Positions 14,755-57,443 of a stretch of DNA of 63,469 nucleotides are shown here, piece by piece. The notes under the pieces were generated by a model. It was not told the DNA's origin. It worked only from the letters and a program-made list of their open reading frames with translations, and did no database searches. The first letter of the stretch is position 1. Each line of letters starts with the position of its first letter. A program made the translations under genes and the position numbers. This DNA is from a virus: positions 1 to 63,469 of IMG/VR virus record IMGVR_UViG_3300045988_132430, one strand, 5' to 3'.

Positions 14755-14921
14755 TAAATATGTATTTTGTTTTGTTTCTGTATCAGTTAGTTATGTTTCA
14801 ATTTGCTTCTACTTGCACAACATTTGCACAACTTATTCCGCGTTGTTTTTCGTTTTAAGCGTGTTTTATTCGTTTTGTGGGTACTTGTAAGCCTCAACCG
14901 CTAAAACTCGCCTAAATCGTT

Positions 14922-15841: not shown

Positions 15842-16091
15842 TTCTTTTGTGGTTTGTGGTAAGCCTCAGCCGTGCAAGGTGTTGAGGCTCGCCAAAGTTA
15901 TTGTATGTATGTTTTTATCTGTTTTGTTTCGTTTTGCGGTGCAAATATAACACTAAAACAAAACCAAACAAAACAAAAGTACTTTTTTCTTGTTATTATG
16001 TTGCATTTCTTCTTGTTTTGCTCTTTTGTTATTTATATTCTGTTTGTTCTTGTTTGTTATTATATTACTTGCAAATCTCCCTTTTGCTCAC

Positions 16092-18322: not shown

Positions 18323-19051
18323 TTATATATTACTTCTTTGTTTCTCTTGAAATTGTTTGAACTCATCAGACAAAGAAAAATTTTGCTTTGTTTGGTGTAG
18401 TGGCTGCTTTGTTCTCTCGTCTTCTTTCAGCCAATAAAGACAAAAGTTTTGTATTTCCTTTAGTGTGGCTTTTGTGCAAAATAAGTCCATCACGTATTGG
18501 CAAAATCTTGGAGCGTTTTTGGCTGCTGCTTCTGTATGGTATTGTATTTTTCCAAATGGTGTTGAGGCTTCAAAGATTTTGCTTTCTTGTGTCGTTGGGG
18601 TGCTGCTGCTTGTAGTGCTATTTTTATTACATTGTGTAGTACTATTTTTATTACATTGTGTAGTACTATTTTTATTACCTTGTGTTGTACTATTTTTATT
18701 ACCTTGTGTTGTACTATTTTTATTACCTTGTGTTGTACTAAATTTATTACCTTGTGTTGTACTAAATTTATTACTAATAAGGAATGTATAAGTACTTGAT
18801 TTGCTTTTTGTTGTGGAGTATTTTATAATACCTTTTTTGCTTAGTGTTTCGCGTATTTTCAAAAGGTGCGTTTTACAAGTTGTTCCATACCTTTTGCAAA
18901 CCTCTTCAAGAGTGGCTACAAATTGCCCTTTCTCGTTCGCTCTCTCTTGGTATAAACCAATTAGAGCAAATAAAAGTCTTGTTTCGCTCGAAGTGTACGC
19001 GCTTGCTTTGTCGTTCTTTAGAATGGTTTTTAAAATCTTTGTTATATCCAT
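18323..19051 (-). CDS. Winged-helix Rep/initiator-like protein with an internal STTQGNK tandem repeat
   Basis: N-terminal wHTH-like region (ATLEEVCKRYGTTCKTHLLKIRETLSKKGII), then seven 8-aa repeats. An iteron array lies nearby. Confidence 0.45.
   Translation of the reverse strand: MDITKILKTILKNDKASAYTSSETRLLFALIGLYQERANEKGQFVATLEEVCKRYGTTCKTHLLKIRETLSKKGIIKYSTTKSKSSTYTFLISNKFSTTQGNKFSTTQGNKNSTTQGNKNSTTQGNKNSTTQCNKNSTTQCNKNSTTSSSTPTTQESKIFEASTPFGKIQYHTEAAAKNAPRFCQYVMDLFCTKATLKEIQNFCLYWLKEDERTKQPLHQTKQNFSLSDEFKQFQEKQRSNI
18613..18780 (-). repeat. 24-bp x 7 in-frame tandem repeat (encodes STTQ(G/C)NK(F/N))
   Basis: Contiguous units TAGTACTATTTTTATTAC(A/C)TTGTG with a few substitutions. Confidence 0.9.
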
Positions 19052-19456
19052 TGTTTTGCCTTTTAAGTTTGTTGTTATTCGTTTTGTGGGCGTTTTGCCG
19101 TGCTTGTGGGTACTTGTTAAGCCTCAGCCGTAAAACTCGCTAAAATCGCAAATTTGCCAAAAATAACGGCTTTTGTTGTTGAGGCTTCGGAATGGTCTTG
19201 CACTCTACAAAGTTTGTACTAACTTATAGTGCAAGGCTATTCCGTTTGTGTTGTAAACTCTCCCACAATCGGATAAATAGGAGAGAGCAAAGCGACCGAC
19301 CCCCATAAACCCCCTATAAATTTATTTCTTGTTTCTTGTTGAGGCTTTAAATAGCTTAAATTTAGTGCTTTGTTTTCGCTCTAAGGGCGTTTTGTGCGTT
19401 TTGTGGTATCTTGTAAGCCTCAGCACAAAATAACGGCTTAAAACGCAAATTTTAAG
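19052..19456. other. 405-bp structured non-coding region (repeat units plus long hairpins)
   Basis: Contains two AAGCCTCAGC and two GTTGAGGCTT copies, a 16-bp stem 19189-19204/19228-19243 with two G-U pairs, and a 6-bp stem 19258-19263/19280-19285. Confidence 0.6.
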
Positions 19457-19888: not shown

Positions 19889-19997
19889 GTGCGAACACCA
19901 ACAACAGCAACAAAAATAACGAAGTATGAGTTATTTTTTTCTGTTGTTGGGTTATATATCATATTTCATATATCATATTTCATAAAGGTTTGCTTTC

Positions 19998-20072
19998 GGT
20001 TTCCCTTTGGTTTCCCTTTGGTTTTCCTTTGGTTTCCCTTTGGTTTCCCTTTGGTTTTCCTTTGGTTTTTTT
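19998..20072. repeat. Iteron-like array: 11-bp GGTTT(C/T)CCTTT x 6 plus a partial unit (33-bp super-repeat x 2)
   Basis: Read directly from the sequence. It is preceded by an AT-rich tandem TATATCATATTTCA x 2 (about 19955-19985). Confidence 0.85.
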
Positions 20073-20121
20073 ATTAGTTGTTATTTGTTGATATTCAAGC
20101 AAAAAAAGTTGTTTTTTTATT

Positions 20122-20975: not shown

Positions 20976-21180
20976 TGTTTTTTTGTTAGTGGTTTGTTGG
21001 TTTGAGCCTCAACACTTCAAAAAGTGCTTTATTTGCCTATTTGCTTTTAGTTTTAGCGTGCTTTGTGTGCTCGGTGGTAGTTTGTACACCTTACACACAA
21101 AAACGCTCTTAGAACAAATAAAAAGCCCTTTTAGGTGTTGAGGCTATAAAGTTGGTAAGTTATTTGCCATTGTTGAGGCT

Positions 21181-21611: not shown

Positions 21612-22943
21612 TTATAATAGCCTTATAACTTCGCTTTTTATCTCATCGTCTATTGCCCTATATCGTGCAAAAGCGGTGCTATTTTGTGCGTGCCCACTCA
21701 TTGAGGCAATTAAATTTGGGTCTTTTACTTGTTTGTATAATAAGCCAATAAATGTGCGCCTTGCCATGTGTGTGCTAACTACTTCGCAAAGTTGCTTTTG
21801 TTCCTCCTTTCGTGTTATTGGGTTTAATACTTGTACTTGTCGCGTGAAGCCACAAAGGGCAAAAAGTTTCTTTAGCTTTCTGTTAATCCTTTCAGTGCTG
21901 CCACAATTCGGTAAAAGGTTTGCACCCTCTTTGTACTTCTCAATGATACGCAAAGCAACTGAATGTAACGGAATGCGTAAAACGCGCCCACGCTTTGAAA
22001 TGGTCTTTTGTGGTATGTATTCCAAATAGTTGCCTATTATGTTATGTTTGGTAAGCCTCAACAAATCACTAATACGGCAACCGCAAAAACACTGAAATAT
22101 AAATAAATCGCGTATCTTCGCAAGTTCGGGGAAATCTTGCAAATCGTATTCCGTTAGCGTGTCGCGTTCCTCCCTTGTAAGGTAGTAGGGAGTGCCGTAT
22201 ATCTCGGGACTTATCTTTATACTCGCCATAGGGTTTTTGTTTATTAGTCCTTTTCTTTCGGCAAAGTTTAAAACGGCTCTAAATTTTTTCATGTACCCTA
22301 TTATGGTGTTTATACTCCTTTGTTTTGGTGGTCTGCCTTTCCTTGTAAGGTCTTCAAATGGTTTGCTTTCGTATATTTCGTGGTGCTTTGCTACTTCTTC
22401 TTGTTCGTGCTTCAAAAAGTCTTCAAAGTTGGCAATATCATTTGCCGTAAGTGTGCGAATATCCGCAAAGTGTGTTGTTTTGCCTTGTGCTTGCTCGTTC
22501 ATTTTTAAGTGCTTAAAAATAGTTCTAAGTGCTTTGTAATACTCTTTGCTCCTTTTGCTCATTTCGTTTGCTTTTACGTATTGTTTTATAAGTTCGCAAA
22601 TGTCGTATATATTACCGCCATCCGTGCAAAGTTCACAAAATACTTCACCATTCATTGCCCTTGTAAGGTCGTGCGAGTTTTTTATAAAATCTTTGTTTTG
22701 TTCGTACACCTCCAAAAGTCGGTCTTTTGTATTTTGTATTTCGTTGTTTGTCGTTCGTCTGTATGTGTTATTGCAAATCTTTCTTGTACTTATTTCTCCC
22801 TTTTTAGAGTCCCAAAGAATAACATTTACAGAAATAGTACTTTTATAAAATAGTTGTACGTTTCGCCCATCAGACAAACGGAAACGAACAAAAGCGGTAT
22901 CTTTGCCCTTGGTCGCTCTTATTAGTGCTTTAATTGTTGCCAT
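21612..22943 (-). CDS. int: Tyrosine recombinase/integrase of the nested element
   Basis: 443 aa. The N-terminal arm-binding-like domain reads MATIKALIRATKGKDTAFVRFRL. The C-terminus carries ARRTF...GHAQNSTAFARY (R, HxxR and Y catalytic pattern). Confidence 0.85.
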   Translation of the reverse strand: MATIKALIRATKGKDTAFVRFRLSDGRNVQLFYKSTISVNVILWDSKKGEISTRKICNNTYRRTTNNEIQNTKDRLLEVYEQNKDFIKNSHDLTRAMNGEVFCELCTDGGNIYDICELIKQYVKANEMSKRSKEYYKALRTIFKHLKMNEQAQGKTTHFADIRTLTANDIANFEDFLKHEQEEVAKHHEIYESKPFEDLTRKGRPPKQRSINTIIGYMKKFRAVLNFAERKGLINKNPMASIKISPEIYGTPYYLTREERDTLTEYDLQDFPELAKIRDLFIFQCFCGCRISDLLRLTKHNIIGNYLEYIPQKTISKRGRVLRIPLHSVALRIIEKYKEGANLLPNCGSTERINRKLKKLFALCGFTRQVQVLNPITRKEEQKQLCEVVSTHMARRTFIGLLYKQVKDPNLIASMSGHAQNSTAFARYRAIDDEIKSEVIRLL

Positions 22944-25780: not shown

Positions 25781-26890
25781 TTAATTATCTTCTGTTACTT
25801 CACCCGTTTTGTCTGTTTCAAGAATGTAGTAGTTATTCTTGCCAGTAAACACAGGGTGCGCCCACATCTCATAATCAATAAAACGTCCCTTCTCATTACG
25901 CCACATACCAACTTGGTTGTTGTCGTATGTTGAGTAAGTCTTGTTGGGTAGGGGGTCAACCGATTCAAGAGTGTCAGCAACTTTCAGCACCGCAACTGTA
26001 TCAGCGCACTGGAATACAACGCGGTCATCCTTCGTCATGTTCGTTGATGTACCATCAGCAAGAATGCAGTAACGCTCCTTCTCAATGGTGATAGTCGGTA
26101 AAAGAATTGATTCGAGATACTGGTTTACTTCGTTATAAGATACACGTGCAGCTGATACATCAACCTTGCCAAGTTTCAATTTGAACACATCACGCAACTG
26201 CTTTGATTTGCACATCTTGCGGAAGGTACGCACACTCATACGCATCTTCAAGACAGTCTTACCGATTGAACCAAGGTAGTCCACAATCTCTTGAATATCG
26301 TCAAGAGGTGTAGAATTTTCGTTACCCCATGCAGCAACTTTGGCATGGAACTTCTTGATACCAAGTTTGTAGGTGTAAGATACACCAGACTTCGTGTTGT
26401 TACCGCTGTTTACAGTCTGTGTGCCGTTGAATAAGCCCTCATAGTAGAGCATATCAATACGCTTATGAGGAGCGATTACAGCCTTCTCGAACGGGTCAAA
26501 GAGGAACTTAACCAACTTAGCATACTCTACGTTACGCTGCTCCTGCGAGAACGAATACTGCTTATCTCGGTATCGTCTTTCGAGGAAATAGTATTGGTCA
26601 AGTCTATCGTTATCCATCTGCCACTCATCGGCAATACGGCTCAGTGAACCAATCAACTGCTTTGCAGTTGGCATCTGATGAGTAGGTTTTTCACCATTCT
26701 TGTCAATAACTGAACCAACCATTGCTGCTGCATATTCTGCAATATAAGCGTTATAAACCTTAGATGCGCAATATTCGGGTGAAGGCATCTCGCTCTTCCA
26801 CTCGGCAACATAGGTTGAGTTCTTCATCTGCTCTTGAATGAAAGCATCAAAACGCTTCGGCTTTTCAAGCTCTTTGATTAAAGAATCCAT
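25781..26890 (-). CDS. Major capsid protein (lambda gpE-like size and position)
   Basis: 369 aa, preceded by scaffold-like and decoration-like genes. Confidence 0.7.
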   Translation of the reverse strand: MDSLIKELEKPKRFDAFIQEQMKNSTYVAEWKSEMPSPEYCASKVYNAYIAEYAAAMVGSVIDKNGEKPTHQMPTAKQLIGSLSRIADEWQMDNDRLDQYYFLERRYRDKQYSFSQEQRNVEYAKLVKFLFDPFEKAVIAPHKRIDMLYYEGLFNGTQTVNSGNNTKSGVSYTYKLGIKKFHAKVAAWGNENSTPLDDIQEIVDYLGSIGKTVLKMRMSVRTFRKMCKSKQLRDVFKLKLGKVDVSAARVSYNEVNQYLESILLPTITIEKERYCILADGTSTNMTKDDRVVFQCADTVAVLKVADTLESVDPLPNKTYSTYDNNQVGMWRNEKGRFIDYEMWAHPVFTGKNNYYILETDKTGEVTEDN

Positions 26891-26916
26891 ATTTGTTAAT
26901 GTTTTTATGTTAGTAC

Positions 26917-27459
26917 TTAAAGCTTAAACGCATGACGCGAAGTGAGTGCAGTTTTGATTGCGTCATTGAGGTAGTAAGGCAACGTTTCTTCCTCAATTTC
27001 GTATGCTTGTAGGGTGGGGGTGCAGCTCTGCATACCATCCAATTCCACTGTTGCGTAATTAAGACCTAAGACATTGCTTGCATTACCATCATCAAGGACT
27101 GCTCCCTTATCGGCTTTTTCCGCAAGATCTGCGATTGTGAATTTGTCAAAGTTTTCATTGCTTGAGTCAATAGCACTAATTGCAGAACCTGCAATGGTAT
27201 CACCAACAACAAAGCAATGTTTCTTGTCAACCTTGATTTCCGTAGCCGATTTAGTTGCGTTCTCGTACACCTTCGCAGTTTTGCACAACACAACCTTTCC
27301 GTTTGAATTAAGCGCAAGGGGAGCACCCTTAGACAACCATTTCAATGTTGCAGGCAATTTAGATTGGTCAATAGTAAAACCGCTCTGTCTACGCACGCAA
27401 GACTTTTCATCCCAAACACCTTCAGGAATATTCGAAGGGATTGTTTCTTTGTAAATCAT
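26917..27459 (-). CDS. Putative head decoration / auxiliary capsid protein
   Basis: 180 aa, between the scaffold-like gene and the major capsid gene. Confidence 0.35.
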   Translation of the reverse strand: MIYKETIPSNIPEGVWDEKSCVRRQSGFTIDQSKLPATLKWLSKGAPLALNSNGKVVLCKTAKVYENATKSATEIKVDKKHCFVVGDTIAGSAISAIDSSNENFDKFTIADLAEKADKGAVLDDGNASNVLGLNYATVELDGMQSCTPTLQAYEIEEETLPYYLNDAIKTALTSRHAFKL

Positions 27460-27482
27460 CTTGTTTCTTTTTTATTAGTTAC

Positions 27483-28121
27483 TTATTCAGACTTAGGGGC
27501 AAGAGCCTTCTGTGCCGATTGCATTTTCTTAAGAAAATCATCATCAGAATCTGCGCTACCATTACCGATAGGGGGAATATCAGAAATACCATACGCTGAG
27601 AGAATCTCTTTACGCTCTTCCGCATAGTCTTGTTCAATCTGAGAAGCAAGATTGTCTGCATCTTCCTCTTTTTCAAGTTTGTAGCGTCCAACGAATTTGC
27701 TCGGAATGTTCTTTAGCTTACTATGTGCAGACAAAATACCAGCAAGTCGTTTGTTTTGTTCAGCTTCCTTGTATGGCTTTAGCGCATCAGCAATACCAGT
27801 TTTGAGCATTTCTTCAACTTGTTCTTTTGTCAACATTCCTTCTGGCTTGTTTGGTTCGGGTTTGTTTGGCTCTGGCTTGTTTGGCTCTGGCTTAACATAA
27901 CCTTCGTACTTCTTTTCAACGGCAGATGCACAACGATTACTGAACTTTTGCATGAAACTTACATAGACCGATGCACCGCTTGCAGCGTTGTTGATATCGT
28001 CCTCTGTAGAGTCTTCAGTGAGATTTTGACCGACAATATCAGCCAACTCCTCGAGTTCTTTTTGGTTGAAACCCTTGTCATGATACAAGGTTTTTAACGC
28101 GTTAATCAGTTTCTTCTTCAT
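27483..28121 (-). CDS. Putative scaffolding protein
   Basis: 212 aa, helical and charged, with a KPEPN x 3 tandem repeat. Confidence 0.45.
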   Translation of the reverse strand: MKKKLINALKTLYHDKGFNQKELEELADIVGQNLTEDSTEDDINNAASGASVYVSFMQKFSNRCASAVEKKYEGYVKPEPNKPEPNKPEPNKPEGMLTKEQVEEMLKTGIADALKPYKEAEQNKRLAGILSAHSKLKNIPSKFVGRYKLEKEEDADNLASQIEQDYAEERKEILSAYGISDIPPIGNGSADSDDDFLKKMQSAQKALAPKSE

Positions 28122-28186
28122 TAGATTTTTTATTTATAGATAATCACAAATGTAGATAGTTATGTTTGTTGGCTTTAATATAGAAT

Positions 28187-28546
28187 TTAGAAATTCGCAT
28201 TTTTCTTAGCTTTTTCCTTGTTTTGATATCTTATTAGCAGTTTCTTGACCTTGTTTGCTGAATAGGCATTTGAATTGTTTATCCTATATATGTGCATTCC
28301 CAACCTACGCAAGCACGCACTTCTGTTGCTGTCAAGTCGCTTTTGGTTATCCGTAAAATGGTATTTCCCATCTACTTCAATAGCAAGTTTGAGCGTAGGT
28401 ATGTATATATCTATATAAAAGCACTTTCTTGCTGTTCTAACTGGGTACTGTCTTATAAATTGCACATTCAATGCGCTTAGTATTCTACACACAGACTTTT
28501 CAGCTGAGGTCGATTTGTTTAGTAGTTCATTTCTGTAGTTTGCCAT
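28187..28546 (-). CDS. DUF559 / Vsr-like endonuclease-fold protein
   Basis: SAEKSVCRILSALNVQFIRQYPV...YIDIYIPTLKLAIEVDGKYHF fits the DUF559 pattern. Confidence 0.55.
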   Translation of the reverse strand: MANYRNELLNKSTSAEKSVCRILSALNVQFIRQYPVRTARKCFYIDIYIPTLKLAIEVDGKYHFTDNQKRLDSNRSACLRRLGMHIYRINNSNAYSANKVKKLLIRYQNKEKAKKNANF

Positions 28547-28667
28547 AGAATTTTCGTTATTTCTGAGAAATCGTGATTTTTCTTCGTTTTTGAGAAAATG
28601 CTCCTAATTCGTTGGTTTTCAAGCAAAAATACAAGGAATTTATGAGATGACAAATTTAAATAATTCC

Positions 28668-28746
28668 TAAAATATTACTTTTTAGTGATTTATTCTTTGT
28701 TATATTACTTTTTAGTTATATCTTTGCAACGCAATTAAGAAATAAA
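28668..28746 (+). repeat. 79-bp perfect inverted copy of the switch promoter/operator region (partner 58752-58830)
   Basis: Position x pairs with 87498-x over all 79 bp. It contains ATATTACTTTTTAGT x 2 and TATCTTTG. Confidence 0.95.
28719..28726 (+). promoter_or_regulatory. -7 box TATCTTTG driving the plus-strand island
   Basis: Lies inside the 79-bp repeat, 49 nt upstream of the ATG at 28775. Confidence 0.55.
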
Positions 28747-28774: not shown

Positions 28775-28975
28775 ATGAAATATTGTACTTGGAAAGAAAC
28801 TGGCAAGAGTTGGATTCTTGATGAATATGGTTTCTATATTAACCCTTATAATGGTCGCGAAGAATGCTACATGGGTGAAGAATTGTTCAAGGTATCTTAC
28901 AGAGAGCCGATAAAGAGTCAGATAATAATACGGGATTTTGATGATGTATACGACACAATAGAAAAGTATCAATAA
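28775..28975 (+). CDS. Hypothetical small protein (island gene 1)
   Basis: 66-aa ORF. Confidence 0.5.
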   Translation: MKYCTWKETGKSWILDEYGFYINPYNGREECYMGEELFKVSYREPIKSQIIIRDFDDVYDTIEKYQ

Positions 28976-28977
28976 AA

Positions 28978-29021
28978 GGGTAACCTTGGTGGCTCGGGTG
29001 GTTCGATTCCACCTTACTCAC
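28978..29021 (+). other. tRNA-like minihelix (T-arm plus acceptor-like stem only)
   Basis: GGTGG-TTCGATT-CCACC (28997-29013). GGGTAA (28978-83) can pair with TTACTC (29014-19). No D arm or anticodon arm is present. Confidence 0.4.
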
Positions 29022-29318
29022 ACACATGTACATGAATTGGTTACGGGATATTCTTTTCAGGTTTCTTCGCGACATTCCAACTGTAAAAAAATGGGCAGGA
29101 AGCAAACAGGGTAGACCACACCGACGTGGTGCGAGACAACGCAAAATCCGAGACAACGTAACCGCCCCATATCGTTATTGGGTTGAGCAAAACAACTAAA
29201 AAGCCGATAGGAATGTGCAACGTATACCGCACATGAGTTCTTCAATGGTTGGGCGATAACCTAAAGCGCATTTTTTACTTTGACAATAAACATAACAACA
29301 ATATAAAACCATACTACA

Positions 29319-30203
29319 ATGGATAATAAATTTTTCGACTTCGACAAAGCAAAGGTGCAGACAATCACACTCGAACAACTTGCACGCACACACAAAGAAA
29401 ATGATGTGTACAATCAACCTTTGAAAGGTATCTATCACTTTGAATTATTCCACAAGGTGATTGAAATGTGCAACGAACAACACTTTAATGTGGAGGTTTA
29501 CGACCTCTTTGCTGCACAGAATAAAGACCGCGCTCAGCCTGGAGTTGTGCTCCTTCCACAAGTTGAAGCCCAGTACGGAGATAAGGCTGTAGAAGCACAT
29601 ATCTTGCGTAGAGTGTTCGCAAATATTCGTATCACGGATTTTGACGATGACGAGAATACGACTAACCTTGCTGTTGCGTTCCATCAAAGAGGTATTCAAG
29701 CAGGGTTTGGTAACATGGTTAAGATATGCCACAACCAATGTATGCTCAATGCTGAGAGCTATATTTCTACGTATGCTGAGAAGGGTACTGGTCGCGGAGA
29801 TAAAGTTACTATTCAAGATGTTCTTGATGTTATCAAGTCGTGGCTCGTTGACGCTCGACACCTCATTGTAAAAGACCGCGAGCGCATGGAACGAATGAAA
29901 GCCATCGAACTTTCTGCAGAGCAAGTCTTTCAGCTGATTGGCATGCTTACAACTATACGCGTTAAATGCGATACAAATAACAAGGCTATCAAGTCTCCTT
30001 GCGTTTATCCGCTTAATCAAGCGCAAATTTCACGCTTTACAGAGCTGCTGCTGTTAAACTATCATGAAACGGGTAAAACTACCGTATGGAGCGTGTATAA
30101 CGCAGCAACGGAACTCTATAAAGCTGATAGCATGGAAATCCCTTCCCTGCTTACACAGAACAGAGCGATGGTTAATTTCTTAGCTGAACAATACAATATC
30201 TAA
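29319..30203 (+). CDS. DUF932/DUF945-like protein (family common in anti-restriction islands of ICEs and prophages)
   Basis: 294 aa. NLAVAFHQRGIQAGFGNMVKICHNQCML resembles the NSHDG...G.FR.VC.NG core. Confidence 0.4.
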   Translation: MDNKFFDFDKAKVQTITLEQLARTHKENDVYNQPLKGIYHFELFHKVIEMCNEQHFNVEVYDLFAAQNKDRAQPGVVLLPQVEAQYGDKAVEAHILRRVFANIRITDFDDDENTTNLAVAFHQRGIQAGFGNMVKICHNQCMLNAESYISTYAEKGTGRGDKVTIQDVLDVIKSWLVDARHLIVKDRERMERMKAIELSAEQVFQLIGMLTTIRVKCDTNNKAIKSPCVYPLNQAQISRFTELLLLNYHETGKTTVWSVYNAATELYKADSMEIPSLLTQNRAMVNFLAEQYNI

Positions 30204-30256
30204 AACAACAATGCAAGGGGAGCGCAAAAACTCTCCTTGCTAAAAACGAAACAACA

Positions 30257-30826
30257 ATGTACAACAATAAAGATTATCAATACGCAATTAAATGCGGTTT
30301 AGACGTGCGTTTCGCCAAGAGTTATGCAATCACTAAACGCGAGAATCCAGATGCTATAAAAAGCGTAGAAACGACTCAAGGCACGCTCATTTATTTCGTT
30401 GACTGGATTTGCACCGATGGCAGCGTGGTTATGCTCAATCCTAAGACAACATCATTGTATCACGAATTGAGATACGACACACATCCTGACGTTGATAAAT
30501 ATGGCGTATTCTTTGCTTTTAATCAAGAACAATTCGATGAAGGGTACAACCATCTTGTAGAACTCGGTTTTATATCAAATGGCGACAAAATCTCCATGGG
30601 CAATTGTGGTGTTTACGGAACACCCGAATCTATTAAAGCTTTCCTTGATTTTTACGAAAATAGGGATAAGGAAATACCAACTAAATGCGACCCACAAGAA
30701 GCTTACTTCTTTGAGTACAACAACTATGAGAGCATGATTGCTTGGGATGGAGATAAAGACGCGTATAACACAATAGTTGAATTGTGGGGTGAAGATGTTG
30801 CAAAAACAATCATACGAATTTACTAA
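30257..30826 (+). CDS. Hypothetical acidic protein (island)
   Basis: 189-aa ORF. Confidence 0.6.
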   Translation: MYNNKDYQYAIKCGLDVRFAKSYAITKRENPDAIKSVETTQGTLIYFVDWICTDGSVVMLNPKTTSLYHELRYDTHPDVDKYGVFFAFNQEQFDEGYNHLVELGFISNGDKISMGNCGVYGTPESIKAFLDFYENRDKEIPTKCDPQEAYFFEYNNYESMIAWDGDKDAYNTIVELWGEDVAKTIIRIY

Positions 30827-30838
30827 TACACAACAGCA

Positions 30839-31243
30839 ATGAAAATAACAGTAGACATTCCGAAGAATGATTACGTACAACATACAGAAGTACGACAAGA
30901 AGTAGTTCAATACATTTGTGAAGCGTTCCTCAGTAATAATATATGGAATATATTCCACCCAGAAAGCCAAGGCGAATATTGGAGTAGAACTCTATACGTT
31001 ATGGTATCTAAACGAAGTAGAAAGGCATACGGATTTGGAGGAAGTAAGCCATTTACTGTCTATGACGAAAGTATACGATTTTATGGCTGCGAAATGAAAG
31101 CAGCTTTTAAAGCTCTTCGTGAAGCTGGGTATCACATGTACCGTGTTTATGGATATAATTCTTGGATGGGCTATGTTTGCAACAGAAAGCCTTTTAATCA
31201 AGACGGAGAGGAAGTAACAACATTCGATGACTTTATTGATTAG
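30839..31243 (+). CDS. Hypothetical protein (island)
   Basis: 134-aa ORF. Confidence 0.6.
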   Translation: MKITVDIPKNDYVQHTEVRQEVVQYICEAFLSNNIWNIFHPESQGEYWSRTLYVMVSKRSRKAYGFGGSKPFTVYDESIRFYGCEMKAAFKALREAGYHMYRVYGYNSWMGYVCNRKPFNQDGEEVTTFDDFID

Positions 31244-31249
31244 CACGAT

Positions 31250-31480
31250 ATGAAAGCAAAAGACATGTTATTAGAGCTAAACAGAGGTTCGATATTTAAT
31301 GGAAACGCATTCTTGCGCGAAAAAAATTTAGGCAAGCGTCTAACTATCTTGAAGGGCAAACTTATCCCCAGTGCTCTGTATTATAGCTCATTCAATATGG
31401 CTGCACTTATTGATGAGCCTGATGTAATACTTACCTTATGCACAAACGAGAAACAGTTTCTTTGGAAAATTGAGATATGA
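31250..31480 (+). CDS. Hypothetical protein (island)
   Basis: 76-aa ORF. Confidence 0.5.
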   Translation: MKAKDMLLELNRGSIFNGNAFLREKNLGKRLTILKGKLIPSALYYSSFNMAALIDEPDVILTLCTNEKQFLWKIEI

Positions 31481-31530
31481 ATACTTGTGTAATGTTGTAA
31501 TATTTCATATTTTTGCAAAAAGTTCAATCT

Positions 31531-31761
31531 ATGAGAGGTGTTTCATATTGTGCAATAGCTTATGCACATTCAATAGGGTTCGATACTGCTATGCAGGTTG
31601 GAACATTTAATGGTTGTCCGCTATATATTTGCAAATTGCTTCATGTAAAAGAAGAGCCTTGCATCGGATTACCACAATACGTTATTGTAAAAAATAAAGA
31701 AGCTATTCCACTTACGTTGGAAGAAACTATGATTATTTTAAGAGCAAAGCGCAAAATATAA
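31531..31761 (+). CDS. Hypothetical protein (island; ATG start chosen inside tracked ORF 31513-)
   Basis: 76 aa from MRGVSY. A TATTTTTG box lies at 31508-31515. Confidence 0.5.
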   Translation: MRGVSYCAIAYAHSIGFDTAMQVGTFNGCPLYICKLLHVKEEPCIGLPQYVIVKNKEAIPLTLEETMIILRAKRKI

Positions 31762-31795
31762 ATTTTTTATTATTATCTTTGCAACAGATTTAGAA

Positions 31796-31859
31796 AAGGT
31801 GATATGATTCCTAATGTCGATATATTGAGCGACGCTGGACATATCACCTTCATTTTTTT
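31796..31859. terminator. Bidirectional terminator between the plus-strand island and the convergent MuF gene
   Basis: 11-bp stem AAGGTGATATG/CATATCACCTT (31796-31806 and 31840-31850) with an inner GTCG/CGAC stem. It is followed by CATTTTTTT on the plus strand and TTTT on the minus strand. Confidence 0.6.
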
Positions 31860-34215
31860 ACTTTAACCGAATGTTATAAGGTATTTCGATTCCATTTTTG
31901 TAGACTTCTGTTTTAATCAACCATACCTCATCATTCTTTTGTAATTCATATTCGTTATAATGAGTTACACCACGTTTCCTTTTTCTTTCAAGGTTTCGTA
32001 AATCAATTTTATTGTTTACATCTTTTACTTCACCAAATATAGACCTTCTACAGAATAGCATTTCTTTCGGATGGGTTACTACATATTTAAACATATCCAC
32101 TTCTTCTTTATTTTTAGCATGAACAATACTTCTTTTCAGAGAACTCTTGCTGTATTTCAATTCACCATCATGTAACTTTTGAATTGTATTGATTTCCAGA
32201 ATTTCAGACATAGCCTTATTTCTGTATTCTATTATCTTCTTTGAAAGATTTACCCTCGTACCAATAATTGAACTTTTATCACGGCTCAAAACAGCCTCAG
32301 TACCTGCCGTTTGTTCTTTCGGAGGTTTTGTCATAAAACTCTTTTTGTCAATAGGTCTTACAACTTTCCAGTTTTTAATATCGAACACAAGATTGTCTAC
32401 ACGATACGCACGCACACCCTTGATTTTCTTTGCATATTCCTTGTCAAAGAAGTTGCGCTCCCCAGTTTGTGGGTCATACCAAAGTGCTGTACCATCTGCT
32501 TTACGCTCCATTGTTACGATGTGTCCATACTTCTCACCTTTCCAACCAAAGGATACATGATAACGACCAACTTCTTTTGTATGTTCGTTTATTTGTTGAA
32601 TGGTCTCTTTGTATGGTAAACCAATAATATTACCACTCTTAGAGATTTTATATGCAAATCTTTCGGGTGTAGCAATACGTTTGCCATCATCATTTCGCCA
32701 ACATAGCCATGTGCAGTGAGATAAAATTTCGGGGTCATCTCCCATTCTCCAGTTAGGTTGAGCAGTTACATCAAACCCACGCATTCTCAATTCATGAGCA
32801 ACAACAGAAGATTGGCAATTTACGCGAAACGCTGTAATACCGCTCTTGTAATCAATATTCCCTTTTCCTTGGTTAGCTTCTTCAAAGTCCATTGAAATAC
32901 CACGTTTGATTTCCATTTTGTTTTCAATATCCTTGAAATTTTGTTGCTGAGCAAGTGAATATTTTCTTTCGTCCCAACGTGTAAGTATGTTTTCTATTTG
33001 CTTATCAGTTCTTGCTTCGTGACGAGTCTTTGCTGCAGCAAGTATTTTCTCACGGCTTGACATTGGTTCAGTTGCTTGCTTCTCCTCCCATCCGAGCAAA
33101 TCACCAACGACACGTTCGTTATCCTTCACAAAGTAAGGCAGTTTCCCTTTTTCACGTGCCAGTGCTAATTTCTTAGCATTGCGCTCGCACCATTTTGAGA
33201 ACTTCTCAGGCACGTTTTGTACAAGGTTGGGGGATTTGTAAGCCTTGTATTCTTTTTCGGGCAGAGAGCGCAAGTATTTCCATTCTTCGCTATCTCTATC
33301 AATTAGAATTGACGAAGCAGAACACATGCAACGTGGATGCCATCCGCGCCACATAAAATCTTTTGGGTAGTCACCTGCAAGCTCGTCACATATATCCTCC
33401 TCTGGATGATTGCCCGATAAGCGAATACGTATACCAAGCACAAACGGCTCACTACTCCACCTTTCACAATTAGCGAAGTTGTACGCCATGTTTGTTTCGG
33501 TAATGGTCAGGCGCAAGGCATTTTGACGTGCTGAGCGATAAACTCCAGTACCAACCTTTGCCAAGTCTTCCTTCACGAAATGCACATTCCCATCTTCATC
33601 CACAACTCGCCTACGCCATTCTATTACATCTTTTTTCGTGCCATCTGACATGGTTTTCTTAACGTGATAGCGTCTGTACATCATATCGGGGTTATTCAAG
33701 TGCTGACGTATTTTGCGACCAAGGCTTTCTGCCGATTCTCCCTTCTTAATGCCTTTTTCTATAGCATTAGACATTGCAAGTTCAAACTCAGCTTTTGTCT
33801 GTTGTGTGTAATTCCAAACTCTATCAGACAAATTCAGTCCGTCTGTTCTATCCCTTCTGCTACGTATGAACGCATTAGCGGTCTTATCCCTCCATTCATC
33901 AACGGCTTCGCCCTGCATACGTGTATATGCTTCAAAAGCCTTTTGTTGGGTTGTTGTTGAAAGCATAACTGCACGCGTTATTCCTTGCTGAATAAGGGAT
34001 TGTAACGCTTGTTTATAAGAATCAAGTAGAGCTTGCACCCTTTCCTTTTCGGTGGGGGTGCAAGCATTTGAAATCTTATAAAATTCTTCTGGTGTAACTC
34101 GTTCCGTTGAAACGATAGTTGCCTTCGTTAACTCATCTATAATATGGTTGTATAACTTATTGAAATCGGACGAAGCTTGCAGAAGTAATTTGATGATATT
34201 CTTTTGAATTGACAT
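31858..34215 (-). CDS. MuF/SPP1 gp7-like head morphogenesis protein fused to a papain-like domain and a C-terminal extra domain (polyvalent protein)
   Basis: 785 aa. The MuF-type core includes GNHPEEDICDEL...WHPRCMCS. Residues 440-615 carry NC467QSSVVAHEL, GH565IV and WYD581P in Cys-His-Asp order. Residues 650-785 form a further basic domain. Confidence 0.7.
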   Translation of the reverse strand: MSIQKNIIKLLLQASSDFNKLYNHIIDELTKATIVSTERVTPEEFYKISNACTPTEKERVQALLDSYKQALQSLIQQGITRAVMLSTTTQQKAFEAYTRMQGEAVDEWRDKTANAFIRSRRDRTDGLNLSDRVWNYTQQTKAEFELAMSNAIEKGIKKGESAESLGRKIRQHLNNPDMMYRRYHVKKTMSDGTKKDVIEWRRRVVDEDGNVHFVKEDLAKVGTGVYRSARQNALRLTITETNMAYNFANCERWSSEPFVLGIRIRLSGNHPEEDICDELAGDYPKDFMWRGWHPRCMCSASSILIDRDSEEWKYLRSLPEKEYKAYKSPNLVQNVPEKFSKWCERNAKKLALAREKGKLPYFVKDNERVVGDLLGWEEKQATEPMSSREKILAAAKTRHEARTDKQIENILTRWDERKYSLAQQQNFKDIENKMEIKRGISMDFEEANQGKGNIDYKSGITAFRVNCQSSVVAHELRMRGFDVTAQPNWRMGDDPEILSHCTWLCWRNDDGKRIATPERFAYKISKSGNIIGLPYKETIQQINEHTKEVGRYHVSFGWKGEKYGHIVTMERKADGTALWYDPQTGERNFFDKEYAKKIKGVRAYRVDNLVFDIKNWKVVRPIDKKSFMTKPPKEQTAGTEAVLSRDKSSIIGTRVNLSKKIIEYRNKAMSEILEINTIQKLHDGELKYSKSSLKRSIVHAKNKEEVDMFKYVVTHPKEMLFCRRSIFGEVKDVNNKIDLRNLERKRKRGVTHYNEYELQKNDEVWLIKTEVYKNGIEIPYNIRLK

Positions 34216-34218
34216 ACA

Positions 34219-35667
34219 TTATTCTTCTCCATTTTGCCCACTATTGATAGCGGAAGCAAATATGTCTAACTTGGCTTGTGCTGCGCTTTCTGCCTGCAAC
34301 TGCTTAATCGTTTGCTCTGGATTGCTCACAAGGGGGTTTAGCTTAACACCATCCTCTTGCGACATGGTTGCCTTGCTTTGTGTTGAGAGGTTTATCATTT
34401 GCAACATCTCCATCTCATTCTTAGGAATGTACGGAGTGAAAACTGGCTCAACATTCAAGGTATCCACAATACGCTGAGGTGTTGCTTTTATACAATTTGC
34501 AATGCCATTCTTTACAATGTTAAAACGTCTTGTAAACATTTCCCCAAATAGCTCAACCTTTGTTTCTGCCTTTAAGTGTGGGTCAGTAAACATTAGTCGA
34601 ATGGCTGCACCACTTGTATTGTTGCCAAGGGTTTTCATATTCTCAAACGAAACGTCAGGTGTCTGTGTGTATGAGAATATGATGTTTGTAAGATTTGCTA
34701 CTTCTTGGCGCATGCTTTCGGGTGCTGAGTTCCATGAAACGACCTTCATGTCTGCGCCATCTCCTTCGCCTTGATATATTCTGCCAACCTCGCCTTTCTC
34801 GGCAAAGCCTTTCATCTTGCCTTTGAAAAAGTAAGTTGGCGCACCAAAGTAATCATTCACATCTCCCCAATTAGAGAGCAATTCTTCAAGTCGCTCAATT
34901 ACGGGCTGCACTGATTCCCATTCCGTTTCTTCTTGTCTGTAATACACAACTGGGATTTTGCCAAAGCCATGTGTCTTCGCATCAAGCAAAACAAGGTTCT
35001 CGCCATCATTTACATATCTGTATAGCATTGAAGACGTGTAAACATCAAAATGCACAGTTGTATTTCCTAACTCATCAAGAACATTGTACTTTCGTGCAAA
35101 GCCATCCATGCGATGATAATCATCGAAGTGAGGGTACAGAATATCGCCATGTATTGGAGATAACATCATTACACGAATATCATATCCGCTGTTATCATCT
35201 TTTGGTATCATATACCACAATTCTGCGCATTCACGACAACGGAACAAATTACGGGCAAGACGCTTGTCAAAGTAGTTTATTTTGTTGTTTTGGAATACTG
35301 ATATGGTTTCATTGTACAACTCTTGCAAACTTGCATCAACAACACCCTTGATGTTATACTTCACTTCTTCGGACAAGAGAAAGCCTACATCGCGCTCGCA
35401 TATCAATCGTTGAGCAGGAACAGCAATACGACATCTATCTACAAACTTCTTCTTGTAAACTGCATTCCCATTCTCATCCTTCTTATCGGTCTTAACCTTT
35501 ATAGCCTTCTTCTTGCGCTTGGTTTCATCCATTACAGCATGAAGCATTGGGTTGTATTCGGCTTCTGTTTCTTCTATTGATTTCTTAAAGCCCTGCTTAC
35601 GCGATGTTAGCAAGGTGTATATCTGCATCGGGTCGCCCAATGCCATTATTTCTGTTATTGCTTTCAT
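34219..35667 (-). CDS. Portal protein (SPP1 gp6-type)
   Basis: 482 aa, located between TerL and the MuF gene. Confidence 0.8.
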   Translation of the reverse strand: MKAITEIMALGDPMQIYTLLTSRKQGFKKSIEETEAEYNPMLHAVMDETKRKKKAIKVKTDKKDENGNAVYKKKFVDRCRIAVPAQRLICERDVGFLLSEEVKYNIKGVVDASLQELYNETISVFQNNKINYFDKRLARNLFRCRECAELWYMIPKDDNSGYDIRVMMLSPIHGDILYPHFDDYHRMDGFARKYNVLDELGNTTVHFDVYTSSMLYRYVNDGENLVLLDAKTHGFGKIPVVYYRQEETEWESVQPVIERLEELLSNWGDVNDYFGAPTYFFKGKMKGFAEKGEVGRIYQGEGDGADMKVVSWNSAPESMRQEVANLTNIIFSYTQTPDVSFENMKTLGNNTSGAAIRLMFTDPHLKAETKVELFGEMFTRRFNIVKNGIANCIKATPQRIVDTLNVEPVFTPYIPKNEMEMLQMINLSTQSKATMSQEDGVKLNPLVSNPEQTIKQLQAESAAQAKLDIFASAINSGQNGEE

Positions 35668-35673
35668 TGTTTG

Positions 35674-36930
35674 TTACATTAAATCGATAAATTCGTCAGC
35701 GTCGAGTCCGTTGCTGTTTTGACCTAATAACTTGTCAAGAACAACATAGCGTATGCCGTCCAAGCAGTGATTATAGGCATCGATAGGCTCATTTAACCAC
35801 TTGCCTTCTTTGTTTTGTCTGTATGTGTAATTACGGAACTCTTTCAGCACGTTTGTACTTCTCCTCGTTACACACATCTTCATTTCCTGCATCTTCTGAA
35901 TACCTGCCATGATTGAACCTGAGAATTTCCGCACGGGGTGTATATCAAGTCCAGCGTTGGCTATTTCGTCAATTAGGCGAGGGTCTGCGCTCTCTGAGAT
36001 AATCTCTACGTTTTCACCGCATTCTTTATTTGCATCCTTCAGTACGCGTATTATGTCAGCAGCAAGCATGTGCGTTTGATAGCATACTTCGTCAATCCAC
36101 AGTGTACCATCATTGATGTACACATCCACGATAGCAGTTGGGTCGTTGGTGTAACCGAAGTCCATACCTCTGTAGTGGTGTTTCTTATGCCAACGTGGAA
36201 TCTCGTCTATTTCCTCGACATTCTCAAATATCAAGCCTTCTACCATTGCTTGCAGCCCAAGACCATAAATGCGCCACAGCGAAGGATTCTTGTGTTTAAG
36301 GCTTTCGATTTCATCAATAACCTTTTGCTCCAAGAATGGATTATCTTTGTAAGTAGTGATAAAATGATAAGTCTTAGGCTCTTTATTCAGTGTGCATAGC
36401 CAGTGGTCATCCGTAAAAGAGGGGTTGTAGTCAATAATAGAGAACTTAGTAGTACGCATTTGCAGCTGCTGCCATTCAATAAACTTTAGCTCGTTACCTT
36501 CATTAACGTACAAAATCTGACGCTTACGACCGCGCAACTTTTGCTCGTTATCGCATGAGAAAAACTCCACCCATGAACCATTTTGGAAGGTGCAAATCAA
36601 TTCTGATTTATTGAACTTGCATTCTCCCCAAATGTTCATATCTTGCATTACTTTTATAAAGTCACGGAGAACAGAACCTTTGAGCGAGGGTAGAGTAGCA
36701 CGAACAACTGACACTGTCGTATGTGGGTTATTCAAGCAATATGCACACAACCAAATAATGGTGTTGTATGTCTTTGATGAACGGCTACTTCCTTGTTCGC
36801 TAACTGTCGTATAACCGCGAATGTAGGCTTTGTTAATCTCTGAAAAGATTCTTGTTGTCTGTATTTTATTCTTCCTCTTCTTCGTCATTATCGTCCGTAT
36901 CAACTTGTTCTCTACTATCAATGATTTCAA
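35674..36930 (-). CDS. terL: Terminase large subunit
   Basis: 418 aa with a Walker-A-like GSSRSSKT. It is adjacent to the portal gene. The true start may be Met15 (36888). Confidence 0.8.
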   Translation of the reverse strand: MKSLIVENKLIRTIMTKKRKNKIQTTRIFSEINKAYIRGYTTVSEQGSSRSSKTYNTIIWLCAYCLNNPHTTVSVVRATLPSLKGSVLRDFIKVMQDMNIWGECKFNKSELICTFQNGSWVEFFSCDNEQKLRGRKRQILYVNEGNELKFIEWQQLQMRTTKFSIIDYNPSFTDDHWLCTLNKEPKTYHFITTYKDNPFLEQKVIDEIESLKHKNPSLWRIYGLGLQAMVEGLIFENVEEIDEIPRWHKKHHYRGMDFGYTNDPTAIVDVYINDGTLWIDEVCYQTHMLAADIIRVLKDANKECGENVEIISESADPRLIDEIANAGLDIHPVRKFSGSIMAGIQKMQEMKMCVTRRSTNVLKEFRNYTYRQNKEGKWLNEPIDAYNHCLDGIRYVVLDKLLGQNSNGLDADEFIDLM

Positions 36931-43986: not shown

Positions 43987-45036
43987 TTATTCTTTTACCT
44001 TAATTCCGTAGTATTGAAAGAACAAATTTTCAAACTGACGACCTGCATAAAGTGCTGCTTCCTCGCTGTTAAAGCACAAGGGGAAACCAAAATCCGCATG
44101 CGTACTCTCACCACGATGGTCTGCAACTGCACAGCGGACACCCGCACTCTCCGTAGCATACGCATCAGCACAGAAGAGGAGCTGCTTAATACCCTTTCTC
44201 TGCTTCTCCTCCTCACTCATGCGCTTCATTTCTTCCTTGGAGTAGAGCACCCAGTAAGGGTAATAGCTCCAGCCATCCTTATCACGCCAAACGTTATTGT
44301 TCATAGCCTTTTGGATAATCAACAGCTTGTAGAGTGCTTGTGCTTGTCCTTGCGCTTCTCTATCTCCACCCATAATGCCAGTAAGTAGGTGTTCTTTCAT
44401 GCCCAACTTCTCACAAGCATCTTTAAAGGTTTTGATTTCGTGAAAATCGAATTGTTTATCATCTTCAAATTCGACATCTTGAATTATTGAAGCTTGTTCT
44501 GCATCAGGTTCTTGATTTGTTGCAGTTAATTCAGCATCGAGTTCTTGTATGAGTTCTTTGTAGCTCTTTCTGGTGTCAGCCAATTTTTCTGTTACCTTAG
44601 ATAGTGGAAGGCAGTGTTCATGTGAACAAGTGCATCCGCGATGATAAAAAGTCGCTTTACAAGCTGAATTTCTTCCAGCACATACACAGATTTCCCATAA
44701 ATCTTTATCATTATCTCTCACCAAGCACGGCTGCCACTTGCATGGTACAAAGTTGGAGTAGTCTTTGTAATAAGTGGGGACTTCGATGTGAAGGTCGAGT
44801 CTGTCCTCTGCTGTAGTGCTACAACGACCATTATTCTTATATACACACACTGATTCGCTGTCGCTGCTATTTGAGACGAGTGCGATTATCGTCCATGAAT
44901 CATTCTTGCGGTCAAAGCAAACTATCCTTGCAGTAAGTCCGTCATCCGTTACTATTCTTCCCTTAACTTCCTTGTTCGTAATCTTCTTCGCCAGTTCAAG
45001 GTCAAAGGGAACTTTCTTAAATGTTGTTCGTGTCAT
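43987..45036 (-). CDS. Hypothetical protein; N-terminal domain paralogous to 45042-45587
   Basis: Shares FKKVPFDLELAKKITNKEVKGRIVT...CKWQPCLVRD... and ELIQELDAELTAT with its neighbour. It also has an extra C-terminal domain of about 170 aa. Confidence 0.65.
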   Translation of the reverse strand: MTRTTFKKVPFDLELAKKITNKEVKGRIVTDDGLTARIVCFDRKNDSWTIIALVSNSSDSESVCVYKNNGRCSTTAEDRLDLHIEVPTYYKDYSNFVPCKWQPCLVRDNDKDLWEICVCAGRNSACKATFYHRGCTCSHEHCLPLSKVTEKLADTRKSYKELIQELDAELTATNQEPDAEQASIIQDVEFEDDKQFDFHEIKTFKDACEKLGMKEHLLTGIMGGDREAQGQAQALYKLLIIQKAMNNNVWRDKDGWSYYPYWVLYSKEEMKRMSEEEKQRKGIKQLLFCADAYATESAGVRCAVADHRGESTHADFGFPLCFNSEEAALYAGRQFENLFFQYYGIKVKE

Positions 45037-45041
45037 TGTTG

Positions 45042-45587
45042 TTATTCTTTATTGTTAGTTGTTGCAGTTAATTCTGCATCGAGTTCTTTGATTAAATCTT
45101 CGTAGCTCTTGGAAGTACCAATTAGTCGTTTGGTTATATTTGAGAGTGGAAGGAAATGCTTATAATCTTCGTATCCATCACTATTATTTCTTGAATAAAA
45201 GATTGGAACTCCATTAGAATCCGTACCACAGCACACTTCTATTCTCCATGTATCAGAAGAATAATCTCTCACCAAGCACGGCTGCCATTTGCACGGCTTA
45301 AAGTTGGAGTAGTCCTTGTGGTAGGTGGGGACTTCGAGGTGAAGGTCGAATTCGTGCTCTCCAATAGCATTATAACAGCCATTATTCTGATATTCAAACA
45401 CTTCTTCTATGTCTCTGTTATTTAGAGCGAGTGCGATTATCGACCATACAGCATTCTTACGGTCGAAACAGATAATTCTTACTTGGCGTCCGTCTCGCGT
45501 AACGATGCGTCCTTTTACTTCTTTATTAGTTATCTTCTTCGCCAGTTCAAGGTCAAAAGGAACTTTCTTAAATTTCATTTGTGTCAT
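45042..45587 (-). CDS. Hypothetical protein (paralog of the N-terminal part of 43987-45036)
   Basis: 181-aa ORF with the motifs listed for its neighbour. Confidence 0.65.
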   Translation of the reverse strand: MTQMKFKKVPFDLELAKKITNKEVKGRIVTRDGRQVRIICFDRKNAVWSIIALALNNRDIEEVFEYQNNGCYNAIGEHEFDLHLEVPTYHKDYSNFKPCKWQPCLVRDYSSDTWRIEVCCGTDSNGVPIFYSRNNSDGYEDYKHFLPLSNITKRLIGTSKSYEDLIKELDAELTATTNNKE

Positions 45588-49984: not shown

Positions 49985-50253
49985 TCTTCTGATTTGTTTT
50001 TTTTGTCACTTATTTCAAATTTGCTCCAATCTCGTTGGTCTTTTGATGGGAAGAGCGTAGGTTCTTTGTGTTTCACATAGTTTTTGCCCTCCTTGTCAAA
50101 TCTCATTATATAATCTCGATATTCTGGGCAAGAGACCCTTATAGGATATTTTGAGTCATCGTCCATAACCTCCATGAGTTCTACTTCACCCCACAGTGGG
50201 CTATAGAGCTTTGTCCCCCTCGGGCACTTTTTCAATATTTCTGCTACATTCAT
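49981..50253 (-). CDS. Hypothetical protein (paralog of the N-terminus of 50255-50695)
   Basis: MNVAEILKKCPRGTKLYSPLWGEVEL compared with MNIAEILKKYPKGTKLYSPLYGEIEL. Confidence 0.6.
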   Translation of the reverse strand: MNVAEILKKCPRGTKLYSPLWGEVELMEVMDDDSKYPIRVSCPEYRDYIMRFDKEGKNYVKHKEPTLFPSKDQRDWSKFEISDKKNKSEE

Positions 50254-50254
50254 A

Positions 50255-50695
50255 TTACTCGGGTTTATTAGTTGTATTTAATAAATGCTCGTTGCCTTCG
50301 TATGGGATGCACTGCTTCCACCATGAATAAATGCAAATATATCTATTATCCTCAGCTATGTGACTAAAAAAATCGCATCCCCATTCTCTATCATTACGGT
50401 CTCGCACAAGAACTCGGTCGAACGGCTTGAACTGATGTTTGGTTTCTTGTTCAGTCACTCCAAACTTATTCCAATCTCGTTGGTCGCGAGAAGGATATAA
50501 CATTAACTCGGCATTATAATCGCGACATTTACCTTCTTCTGTAAATGTTCTGTAATACTCTACGTTGTTAACTTTATGTGAGCATACAATGGGATATTTT
50601 TTATCGTAAACACTTACGAGTTCAATTTCACCATAGAGTGGGCTATAGAGTTTTGTACCTTTCGGATATTTCTTCAAAATTTCTGCTATGTTCAT
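50255..50695 (-). CDS. Hypothetical protein (paralog pair)
   Basis: 146-aa ORF. Confidence 0.6.
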   Translation of the reverse strand: MNIAEILKKYPKGTKLYSPLYGEIELVSVYDKKYPIVCSHKVNNVEYYRTFTEEGKCRDYNAELMLYPSRDQRDWNKFGVTEQETKHQFKPFDRVLVRDRNDREWGCDFFSHIAEDNRYICIYSWWKQCIPYEGNEHLLNTTNKPE

Positions 50696-50713
50696 CTTCT
50701 TGTTTTTAAAAAG

Positions 50714-56261: not shown

Positions 56262-56272
56262 AATATTGTATT

Positions 56273-57441: not shown

Positions 57442-57443
57442 AA

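Follow-up and report, generated by a model that had tools for sequence, protein, structure and literature searches.

The stretch of DNA analysed here, referred to as the window (63,469 nucleotides), begins and ends with the same 49 bp (1-49 and 63421-63469), which by inspection correspond to the 3' part of tRNA-Pro(TGG). A 412-aa ORF beside the right-hand copy is taken to be the integrase, from its position and its relatives. Given these terminal repeats and the putative integrase, the window can be read as a prophage bounded by att repeats, and we infer that it is a temperate phage integrated at tRNA-Pro of a Bacteroidota host; the hosts of this phage group are probably Prevotella or Bacteroides. 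From the right end, the integrase gene (minus strand) is followed by a repressor operon (plus), the switch region, an early operon (minus), the terminase, portal and head-morphogenesis genes (minus), an island of plus-strand ORFs, and finally an HNH-like gene and the major head gene (minus) (Table 1). The presence of RecT-like and YqaJ genes identifies the leftward operon as a genuine early operon. Rfam gave no match anywhere in the window, and a DNA search of a cultured-phage collection with the island and switch regions gave none either. In a protein search of the same collection the repressor found no match and the 294-aa island protein matched only three unannotated faecal phage contigs.

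Table 1 Features of the window, in order of position
Feature	Position	Strand	Remarks
Late genes on the island's other side	25781-28546	-	include two genes of no assigned function
Major head protein	25781-26890	-	
HNH-like gene	28187-28546	-	
Island cassette copy	28663-28746	+	O1 28672-28686; -33 TTTG 28696-28699; O2 28702-28716; -7 box TATCTTTG 28719-28726
Plus-strand island	28775-31761	+	seven ORFs (66, 57, 294, 189, 134, 76 and 82 aa)
294-aa ORF	29319-30203	+	DUF932 fold (structure model and distant homologues)
189-aa ORF	30257-30826	+	DUF7659 (Pfam)
Likely island terminator	31796-31858	+	hairpin AAGGUGAUAUG...CAUAUCACCUU, then U-run; -21.4 kcal/mol, z = -3.6
Late genes convergent with the island	31858-36930	-	
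Head-morphogenesis protein	31858-34215	-	
Portal	34219-35667	-	
Large terminase	35674-36930	-	
Proximal early operon	55494-58679	-	ORFs, RecT-like, YqaJ exonuclease
YqaJ exonuclease gene	56261-55494	-	
RecT-like gene	57214-56273	-	
Three small early ORFs	57441-57235 (HTH_17)	-	one encodes a 68-aa HTH_17 protein
146-aa ORF	58558-58118	-	variable; first long early gene
30-aa ORF	58679-58587	-	in the early operon
Rightward promoter candidate of the repressor operon	58686-58735	+	-7 box TATCTTTG 58716-58723; TTTG 19 nt upstream
Switch cassette copy	58752-58835	-	O1 58826-58812; -33 58802-58799; O2 58796-58782; -7 box 58779-58772
First gene of the repressor operon	58846-59520	+	224 aa, TPR-like; weak Pfam hits only
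CI-like repressor	59517-60272	+	251 aa from TTG, 248 aa from ATG at 59526
Gp49/HigB-like toxin and HTH_3 antitoxin pair	60467-61003	+	just downstream of the repressor gene
Putative integrase	62034-63272	-	412-aa ORF

The repressor carries an N-terminal HTH_3 domain (E = 3e-10) that aligns to the DNA-binding domain of the 434 repressor, including helix 3, the recognition helix, and its residues 11-248 match PHROG 4 ('transcriptional repressor'). The C-terminal part scores 23.0 bits against Peptidase_S24, for which the Pfam cut-off is 23.3. It has QDAMFP where G(D/N)SMxP is expected, and FRRV aligned to VKRL of LexA (the Lys position was aligned by the tool and the Ser position by inspection); this QDAMFP/FRRV motif is identical in 10/10 aligned relatives. 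With Ala and Arg at the two positions, the S24-like domain seems to be devoid of the catalytic Ser-Lys dyad, which suggests a repressor that does not cleave itself and answers to another induction trigger. The gene for the 224-aa TPR-like protein lies between the operators and the repressor gene and is found only in phages of operator types A and A2 (defined below); in the other types the repressor is the first gene of the operon. The TPR-like protein could be a sensor or a co-regulator. The toxin-antitoxin pair is ~97% conserved across immunity types (window versus contigs 086121 and 112417). On the early side of the switch, an exact 30-nt tandem duplication at 58498-58557 forms the 5' end of the 146-aa ORF, whose product begins MKNSGGTRNT-MKNSGGTRNT.

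The island is antisense to the head genes that surround it and is placed between the head-morphogenesis gene and the capsid genes. It has traits of a moron, namely a predicted promoter and terminator of its own, the opposite strand and a position between late genes. The possibility that it is a dispensable add-on of this kind was rejected, as 54 viral contigs have the 294-aa gene and the island is found at the same place in relatives. Variation among relatives is limited to its first and last small genes. The terminator hairpin is possibly bidirectional and shared with the convergent head-morphogenesis gene. A third -7-like box, TATCTTTGCAAC, lacking a -33 element, stands directly before this hairpin. 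Contigs from a clade with only 79% identity in the DUF932 gene match the window at every position of the stretch 31764-31858 (+) that contains both; a small RNA may be encoded here, or the stretch may be no more than the terminator.

Over 2,600 unnamed homologues exist for the 294-aa protein, which gave no Pfam hit at E <= 0.01, DUF932 (PF06067) included. Homologues 38-45% identical to the 294-aa protein of a relative are, however, named DUF932, and one of them carries PF06067. An AlphaFold2 model (pLDDT 90; an earlier model from a shallow alignment, pLDDT 61, was not used) matches viral DUF932 proteins with probability 1.0, and had no match in a fold search of the PDB. A PDB sequence search with the island proteins was likewise without match. 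DUF7659 is the sole family match among the other island ORFs in Pfam, PHROGs, NCBIfam and PADLOC. Searches of the literature found nothing on DUF7659 and no established function for DUF932.

A promoter with two putative operators, present twice

The switch and the island share one element. A repeat search of the window showed that 28663-28746 (+) is the reverse complement of 58752-58835 over 84 nt with one mismatch (99%). An earlier note on this DNA had described an exact inverted copy of 79 nt (28668-28746 and 58752-58830); the perfect core stands, and the repeat proves to be slightly longer. The longest exact inverted match in the window is thus 79 nt, whereas 30 sequences simulated from the window with a first-order Markov model gave 16.7 on average and 21 at most, and a chance origin is excluded. 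Sequence flanking the 84 nt has no similarity between the two loci, in agreement with the unrelated surroundings noted earlier. The copy at 58.8 kb faces left and heads the early operon, next to the repressor operon, and the copy at 28.7 kb faces right into the island ORFs, both as the note had it.

Each copy contains two 15-bp direct units, O1 and O2, whose 30-bp spacing and ACT-N4-AGT symmetry were confirmed; the symmetry is a true dyad and can be extended to AT(T)ACT-TTTT-AGT(G/T)AT. The only four occurrences of the 15-mer ATATTACTTTTTAGT in the window are O1 and O2 of the two cassettes, any other site having at least 2 mismatches. In both copies the units are followed by the -7 box TATCTTTG, as had been claimed. 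Promoters of Bacteroidota sigma-A have the form -33 TTTG, ~19-21 nt, -7 TAnnTTTG. Here TTTG and the -7 box are separated by 19 nt in both copies; O2 fills this spacer and abuts the -7 box, and O1 lies 30 bp upstream, beside the -33 element. About 20 nt of leader past the -7 box are included in the copied segment, and transcription of the island would be predicted to start near 28732-28735. These features support the identification of the cassette as a complete housekeeping promoter of Bacteroidota type plus putative operators.

A scan of one genome per species with the core promoter pattern found the -7 box and leader, ATCTTTGCAACGCAATTAAGAA, ahead of tRNA genes as well, in MAGs of Alistipes, Prevotella and Bacteroides; they are thus a generic strong promoter and not a phage-specific signal. 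The scan with this pattern returned only host housekeeping and tRNA promoters and no phage relatives, and a generic sigma-70 and terminator scan was uninformative for this organism.

At the switch, the cassette ends 11 nt from the ATG of the rightward repressor operon. The candidate rightward promoter of this operon has its -7 box opposed to that of the cassette, so that the pair is arranged face to face, ~35 bp separating the predicted starts, and a transcript from the predicted rightward promoter must traverse O2 and O1. This rightward -7 box is kept in all immunity types. The segment copied at the island ends just short of it.

The island cassette itself stands back to back with a leftward -33/-7 pair at 28624-28654 (-) (TTTG, 19 nt, TATTTTTG). 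The pair faces the HNH-like and capsid genes, O1 being ~60 bp upstream of the predicted start, and relatives do not strictly keep its TATTTTTG -7 box. The pair may serve to transcribe the second late-gene block.

Matched operators in related genomes

Relatives were collected with the 294-aa island protein (54 viral contigs) and with the conserved repressor C-domain (27). Both loci were present in 13 of the related contigs, and for each of these the sequence 1.0-1.5 kb upstream of the 294-aa gene was compared with the contig's own switch; sampling was narrow, with a single metagenome project (3300045988) as the source of nearly all relatives. In 13/13 contigs a segment of 74-143 bp is common to the island promoter and its own switch, with 87-99% identity, so that with the window the duplication is kept in 14/14 genomes, and the boundaries of the shared segment are the same throughout. 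In contig 104405 the two copies are up to 99% identical over 143 bp.

The operators themselves are of at least 8 types in these 14 genomes. The window is type A, and contig 060982 has a close variant (A2). Types B and B' (the latter in contig 086121) have TATAA-N5-TTATA, type E has AAGAA-N3-TTCTT and type G has TCCAAA-N5-TTTGGA; types C and F are further operator types. The dyads of B, G and E are perfect, and that of type A is weak, with arms of 3 to 6 bp and a mismatch. The architecture is common to all types: O2 sits in the spacer, abutting or overlapping the -7 box, and O1 is 30-32 bp upstream. Types F and G depart from A to E even in the -7 box and leader, yet these again agree between both copies of one genome. 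From -62 to -1, the identity of island and switch copies is 82-98% within a genome, compared with 32-65% between different types. With one genome per type, the true pairing of islands with switches is the single best of 720 permutations. In type D (contig 136204) the identity of the two copies is no more than 58% over the 52 nt that could be compared, and an operator-like word is common to both only in opposite orientation. The exact type A operator-pair pattern had no hits in viral contigs, and in a distant clade (143201, 160314) a search with the island operator word matched the island copy only.

In some relatives (contigs 064904, 152760 and 088394) this -7 box and leader recur in a third promoter. 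It is placed beyond the integrase, has TTTTGCA words and no repressor operators upstream, and is absent from the window.

Comparison of the proteins encoded around the switch indicates which of them follows the operators. The repressor is modular: its C-domain occurs as two alleles, alpha and beta, ~43% apart, and the operators sort in step with its N-domain types (A/A2, B/B', C, E, F and G) but not with the C-domain alleles. The window and 086121 are 97% identical in the C-domain and only 37% in the N-domain, and their operators differ. The window and 060982 are only 56% identical in the C-domain and 69% in the N-domain; they share an operator family and have nearly the same recognition helix (VSQSYISQLING and VSQPYISQLING). 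None of the other proteins compared tracks the type: the first early ORFs are common to A2, B and E, and to B' and C; the HTH_17 gene belongs to a block with 86% conservation among A, B' and C; and the HTH_3 antitoxin is conserved across operator types. No type-specific Cro was found among the early genes compared. The earlier note's proposal that the same repressor acts at both loci is therefore strengthened at the level of sequence, as the 434-like N-terminal domain is the one feature tested that tracks operator type.

Binding of the units by a different protein would be an alternative. The non-conserved immunity region (~58115-59720) also holds the genes for the TPR-like 224-aa protein, limited to the A and A2 types, and for the 146-aa early protein, either of which might take the part of a Cro-like binder in place of the S24-type repressor. 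This is very unlikely, since types B, B', C, E, F and G keep the duplicated cassette without a TPR-like gene, the first early ORFs do not respect operator type, no DNA-binding domain was detected in either protein, and the repressor N-domain alone follows the operators.

Backbone clades were defined by the DNA of the DUF932-like gene. Clade 1 (the window, 086121 and 112417; 92-96% identical) contains types A, B' and C, clade 2 (95-99%) contains A2, B and E, and clade 3 (97-98%) contains F and G. As A/A2 and B/B' each span two clades, there have been at least five type changes in close backbones, always at both loci together. Shared ancestry thus does not explain why the operators match at the two loci. 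The earlier note had offered selection or recent copying as the cause of the identity, and both appear to apply: the duplication is retained in 13/13 relatives, and copies resemble each other more within than between genomes. The near identity of positions outside the operators (83/84 over the whole segment in the window) argues that, besides selection acting on the operators, the sites have been copied one from the other or exchanged jointly. Identity at non-operator positions could stem from recent conversion and not from selection at every base.

One relative differs in the arrangement of its modules. Contig 086121 is circular, its ends overlapping at window position ~36.4k. Compared with the window, its early and immunity module is flipped with respect to the structural module; the end points of this inversion lie near window 43k and 61k, away from the cassettes. 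Its two cassettes are therefore direct repeats, and the inverted orientation seen in the window is incidental. In 086121 each cassette still adjoins its own unit, the early operon or the island, which argues against a role of the repeats in inversion or as a cruciform. No integrase homologue was seen beside the repressor operon of this contig.

Proposed switch and its relation to known systems

We propose that a single repressor controls both cassettes, with the island silent in the lysogen and derepressed together with the early operon, and we hold this to be likely. The leftward early promoter would be strong and carry two dyad operators, O2 in the spacer and O1 three helical turns upstream. 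Repressor dimers on O1 and O2 would exclude RNA polymerase at both promoters. The rightward promoter of the switch would read through the operators and is probably autoregulated. The island would form a separate rightward transcription unit, driven by the distal cassette and ended by its own terminator. Since both cassettes are the same, the island is expected to be silent in the lysogen; it would come on with the early operon at induction, or at infection before repressor accumulates. Immediate-early timing of the island is therein a prediction, as it had been in the earlier note. An island promoter with the operators of the switch is predicted to be under repressor control, which is the opposite of the lysogenic expression of morons. 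The concerted changes of type imply that immunity specificity would consist of a matching repressor N-domain, switch operators and island operators. The island copy may have been repeatedly re-copied from the switch by gene conversion, or both copies may have been exchanged by recombination.

The distal copy could instead serve mainly as a pair of auxiliary operators that loop to the switch and so reinforce or adjust repression, in the manner of lambda OL-OR or the 186 FL/FR sites, with driving of the island secondary or absent. Two identical operator pairs and a repressor with a C-domain of the oligomerisation type would suit such a role, and distal operators that aid repression are documented for 186 CI (PMC3675496). 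Yet the copy goes beyond operators to include the -33 and -7 elements and the leader, it is always correctly oriented and directly upstream of the first island gene, and this arrangement persists in 086121 despite the flipped immunity module. The distance of ~30 kb is also far from the 0.3-2.4 kb of known loops. We consider looping as the main role highly improbable.

There is similarly only a slim chance that the second cassette is a neutral by-product of recent duplication or conversion and the island a moron that captured a strong promoter. Such an origin could account for the 83/84 identity of the window copies, which extends to positions unlikely to be contacted, and the -7 box and leader are indeed those of a generic strong promoter that is also found on host tRNA genes. 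A neutral copy would hardly be expected in 14/14 genomes with at least 8 operator types, to be replaced in concert with the switch at least five times in close backbones, and to have its boundaries in the same places throughout. Finally, RecA might act on a near-perfect inverted repeat of 84 bp, and 086121 does carry an inverted early and immunity module, but it is extremely unlikely that the cassettes serve as substrates for recombination that flips the 30-kb segment, given that the end points in 086121 (~43k and ~61k) are not at the repeats, its cassette junctions are unchanged, its copies are direct repeats, and with such an inversion each operon would only exchange its promoter for an identical one, with no regulatory effect.

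Control of both promoters by one repressor leaves room for a more specific part for the island. In a switch that lacks Cro and whose repressor cannot be cleaved, the island might act as the commitment arm, one of its products inactivating the repressor through the conserved C-domain or otherwise locking in lytic growth. That product could be the DUF932-fold protein or come from a small ORF, and an island promoter repressed by the very protein that is inactivated would give rise to a positive-feedback loop. This is speculative, and we regard it as improbable. If true, it would explain why the cassette always matches the immunity type and is re-copied after each swap, and it would provide a first function for DUF932, a widespread orphan family of mobile elements.

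The regulatory principle of the proposed switch is textbook; what differs is the full second promoter 30 kb away in the head-gene cluster and the DUF932 island that it heads. In lambda, cI represses PL and PR via OL and OR, and operators and DNA-binding specificity change together between heteroimmune phages. The two lambda promoters, with three operators each, flank cI within ~2.4 kb and form one exchangeable immunity block. The proposed switch is like lambda in that one repressor is predicted to act on two early promoters with matched operators, and in the N-terminal HTH and C-terminal LexA/S24-like domains of that repressor. In contrast to lambda, the second promoter is ~30 kb off, inside the morphogenesis module, each promoter has two operators, no type-specific Cro was found, and the S24-like domain is apparently without catalytic Ser and Lys. 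Because the second promoter is ~30 kb away, the cassettes must change separately or by copying.

Repressors with repeated operators across the genome, acting on several separate transcription units, are P1 C1, N15 CB, mycobacteriophage L5 gp71 and phiC31 c. Those systems have 3 to more than 30 dispersed sites, whereas here there are exactly two near-identical whole-promoter cassettes. For phage 186, work by Dibbens et al. in 1992 is said to place CI at the distant promoter pB of the late activator gene. The 186 lytic and lysogenic promoters are face to face (Dodd et al. 1990, in the account given of it by PMC3675496), and CI of this phage also acts at the distal sites FL and FR (PMC3675496). 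The likeness to 186 and P2 extends to the face-to-face promoters, here predicted from the DNA letters alone, and to a small excisionase-like HTH early protein, here the 68-aa HTH_17 protein. The repressor family is, however, unrelated to 186 CI, and the distal target is a full early-promoter copy with a seven-gene island and not a late-activator gene.

Bacteroidales prophages such as LoVE have repressors of HTH and S24 type at the prophage end, and RNA-seq after mitomycin C revealed early-expressed regulatory genes beside capsid and tape-measure genes (bioRxiv 10.64898/2026.06.25.734096). That study concerns a different phage and does not describe operators or promoter duplications; its repressors are described as complete, self-cleaving CI, in contrast to the seemingly missing catalytic dyad here.

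The proposed switch would be the first operator-level model of lysogeny, based on sequence, for the widespread, uncultured and little-studied temperate phages of Bacteroidota. Its at least 8 natural pairs of repressor domain and operator are candidate orthogonal parts. Immunity specificity held at two loci 30 kb apart would constrain how heteroimmune recombinants can arise and would explain the concerted evolution of the cassettes. The placement of a DUF932-fold gene in an early unit predicted to be under repressor control offers a functional lead for an orphan family found on phages, plasmids and ICEs.

Further repeats and promoter-like boxes

Boxes of the -7 type are present close to both ends of the window, at 165-172 (-) and 63303-63310 (-), the left-end box facing outward across attL. 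In the circular form this box would read across attP toward the integrase, which has a -7 box of its own, and expression of the integrase may depend on the circularity of the genome.

In the tail region, intergenic repeats of ~73 nt lie between minus-strand genes (14847-14919, 19076-19148, 19373-19445 and 21044-21116, with 15845-15870 and 22037-22062). They have the core TTGTAAGCCTCA(A/G)C, no Rfam match and often an adjacent -7-like box; a function as late promoters or RNA elements is possible. Also present are tandem repeats of 24 nt and 11 nt in the tail region and two paralogous early gene pairs (18587-18802, 19976-20080, 44517-45540 and 49993-50698).
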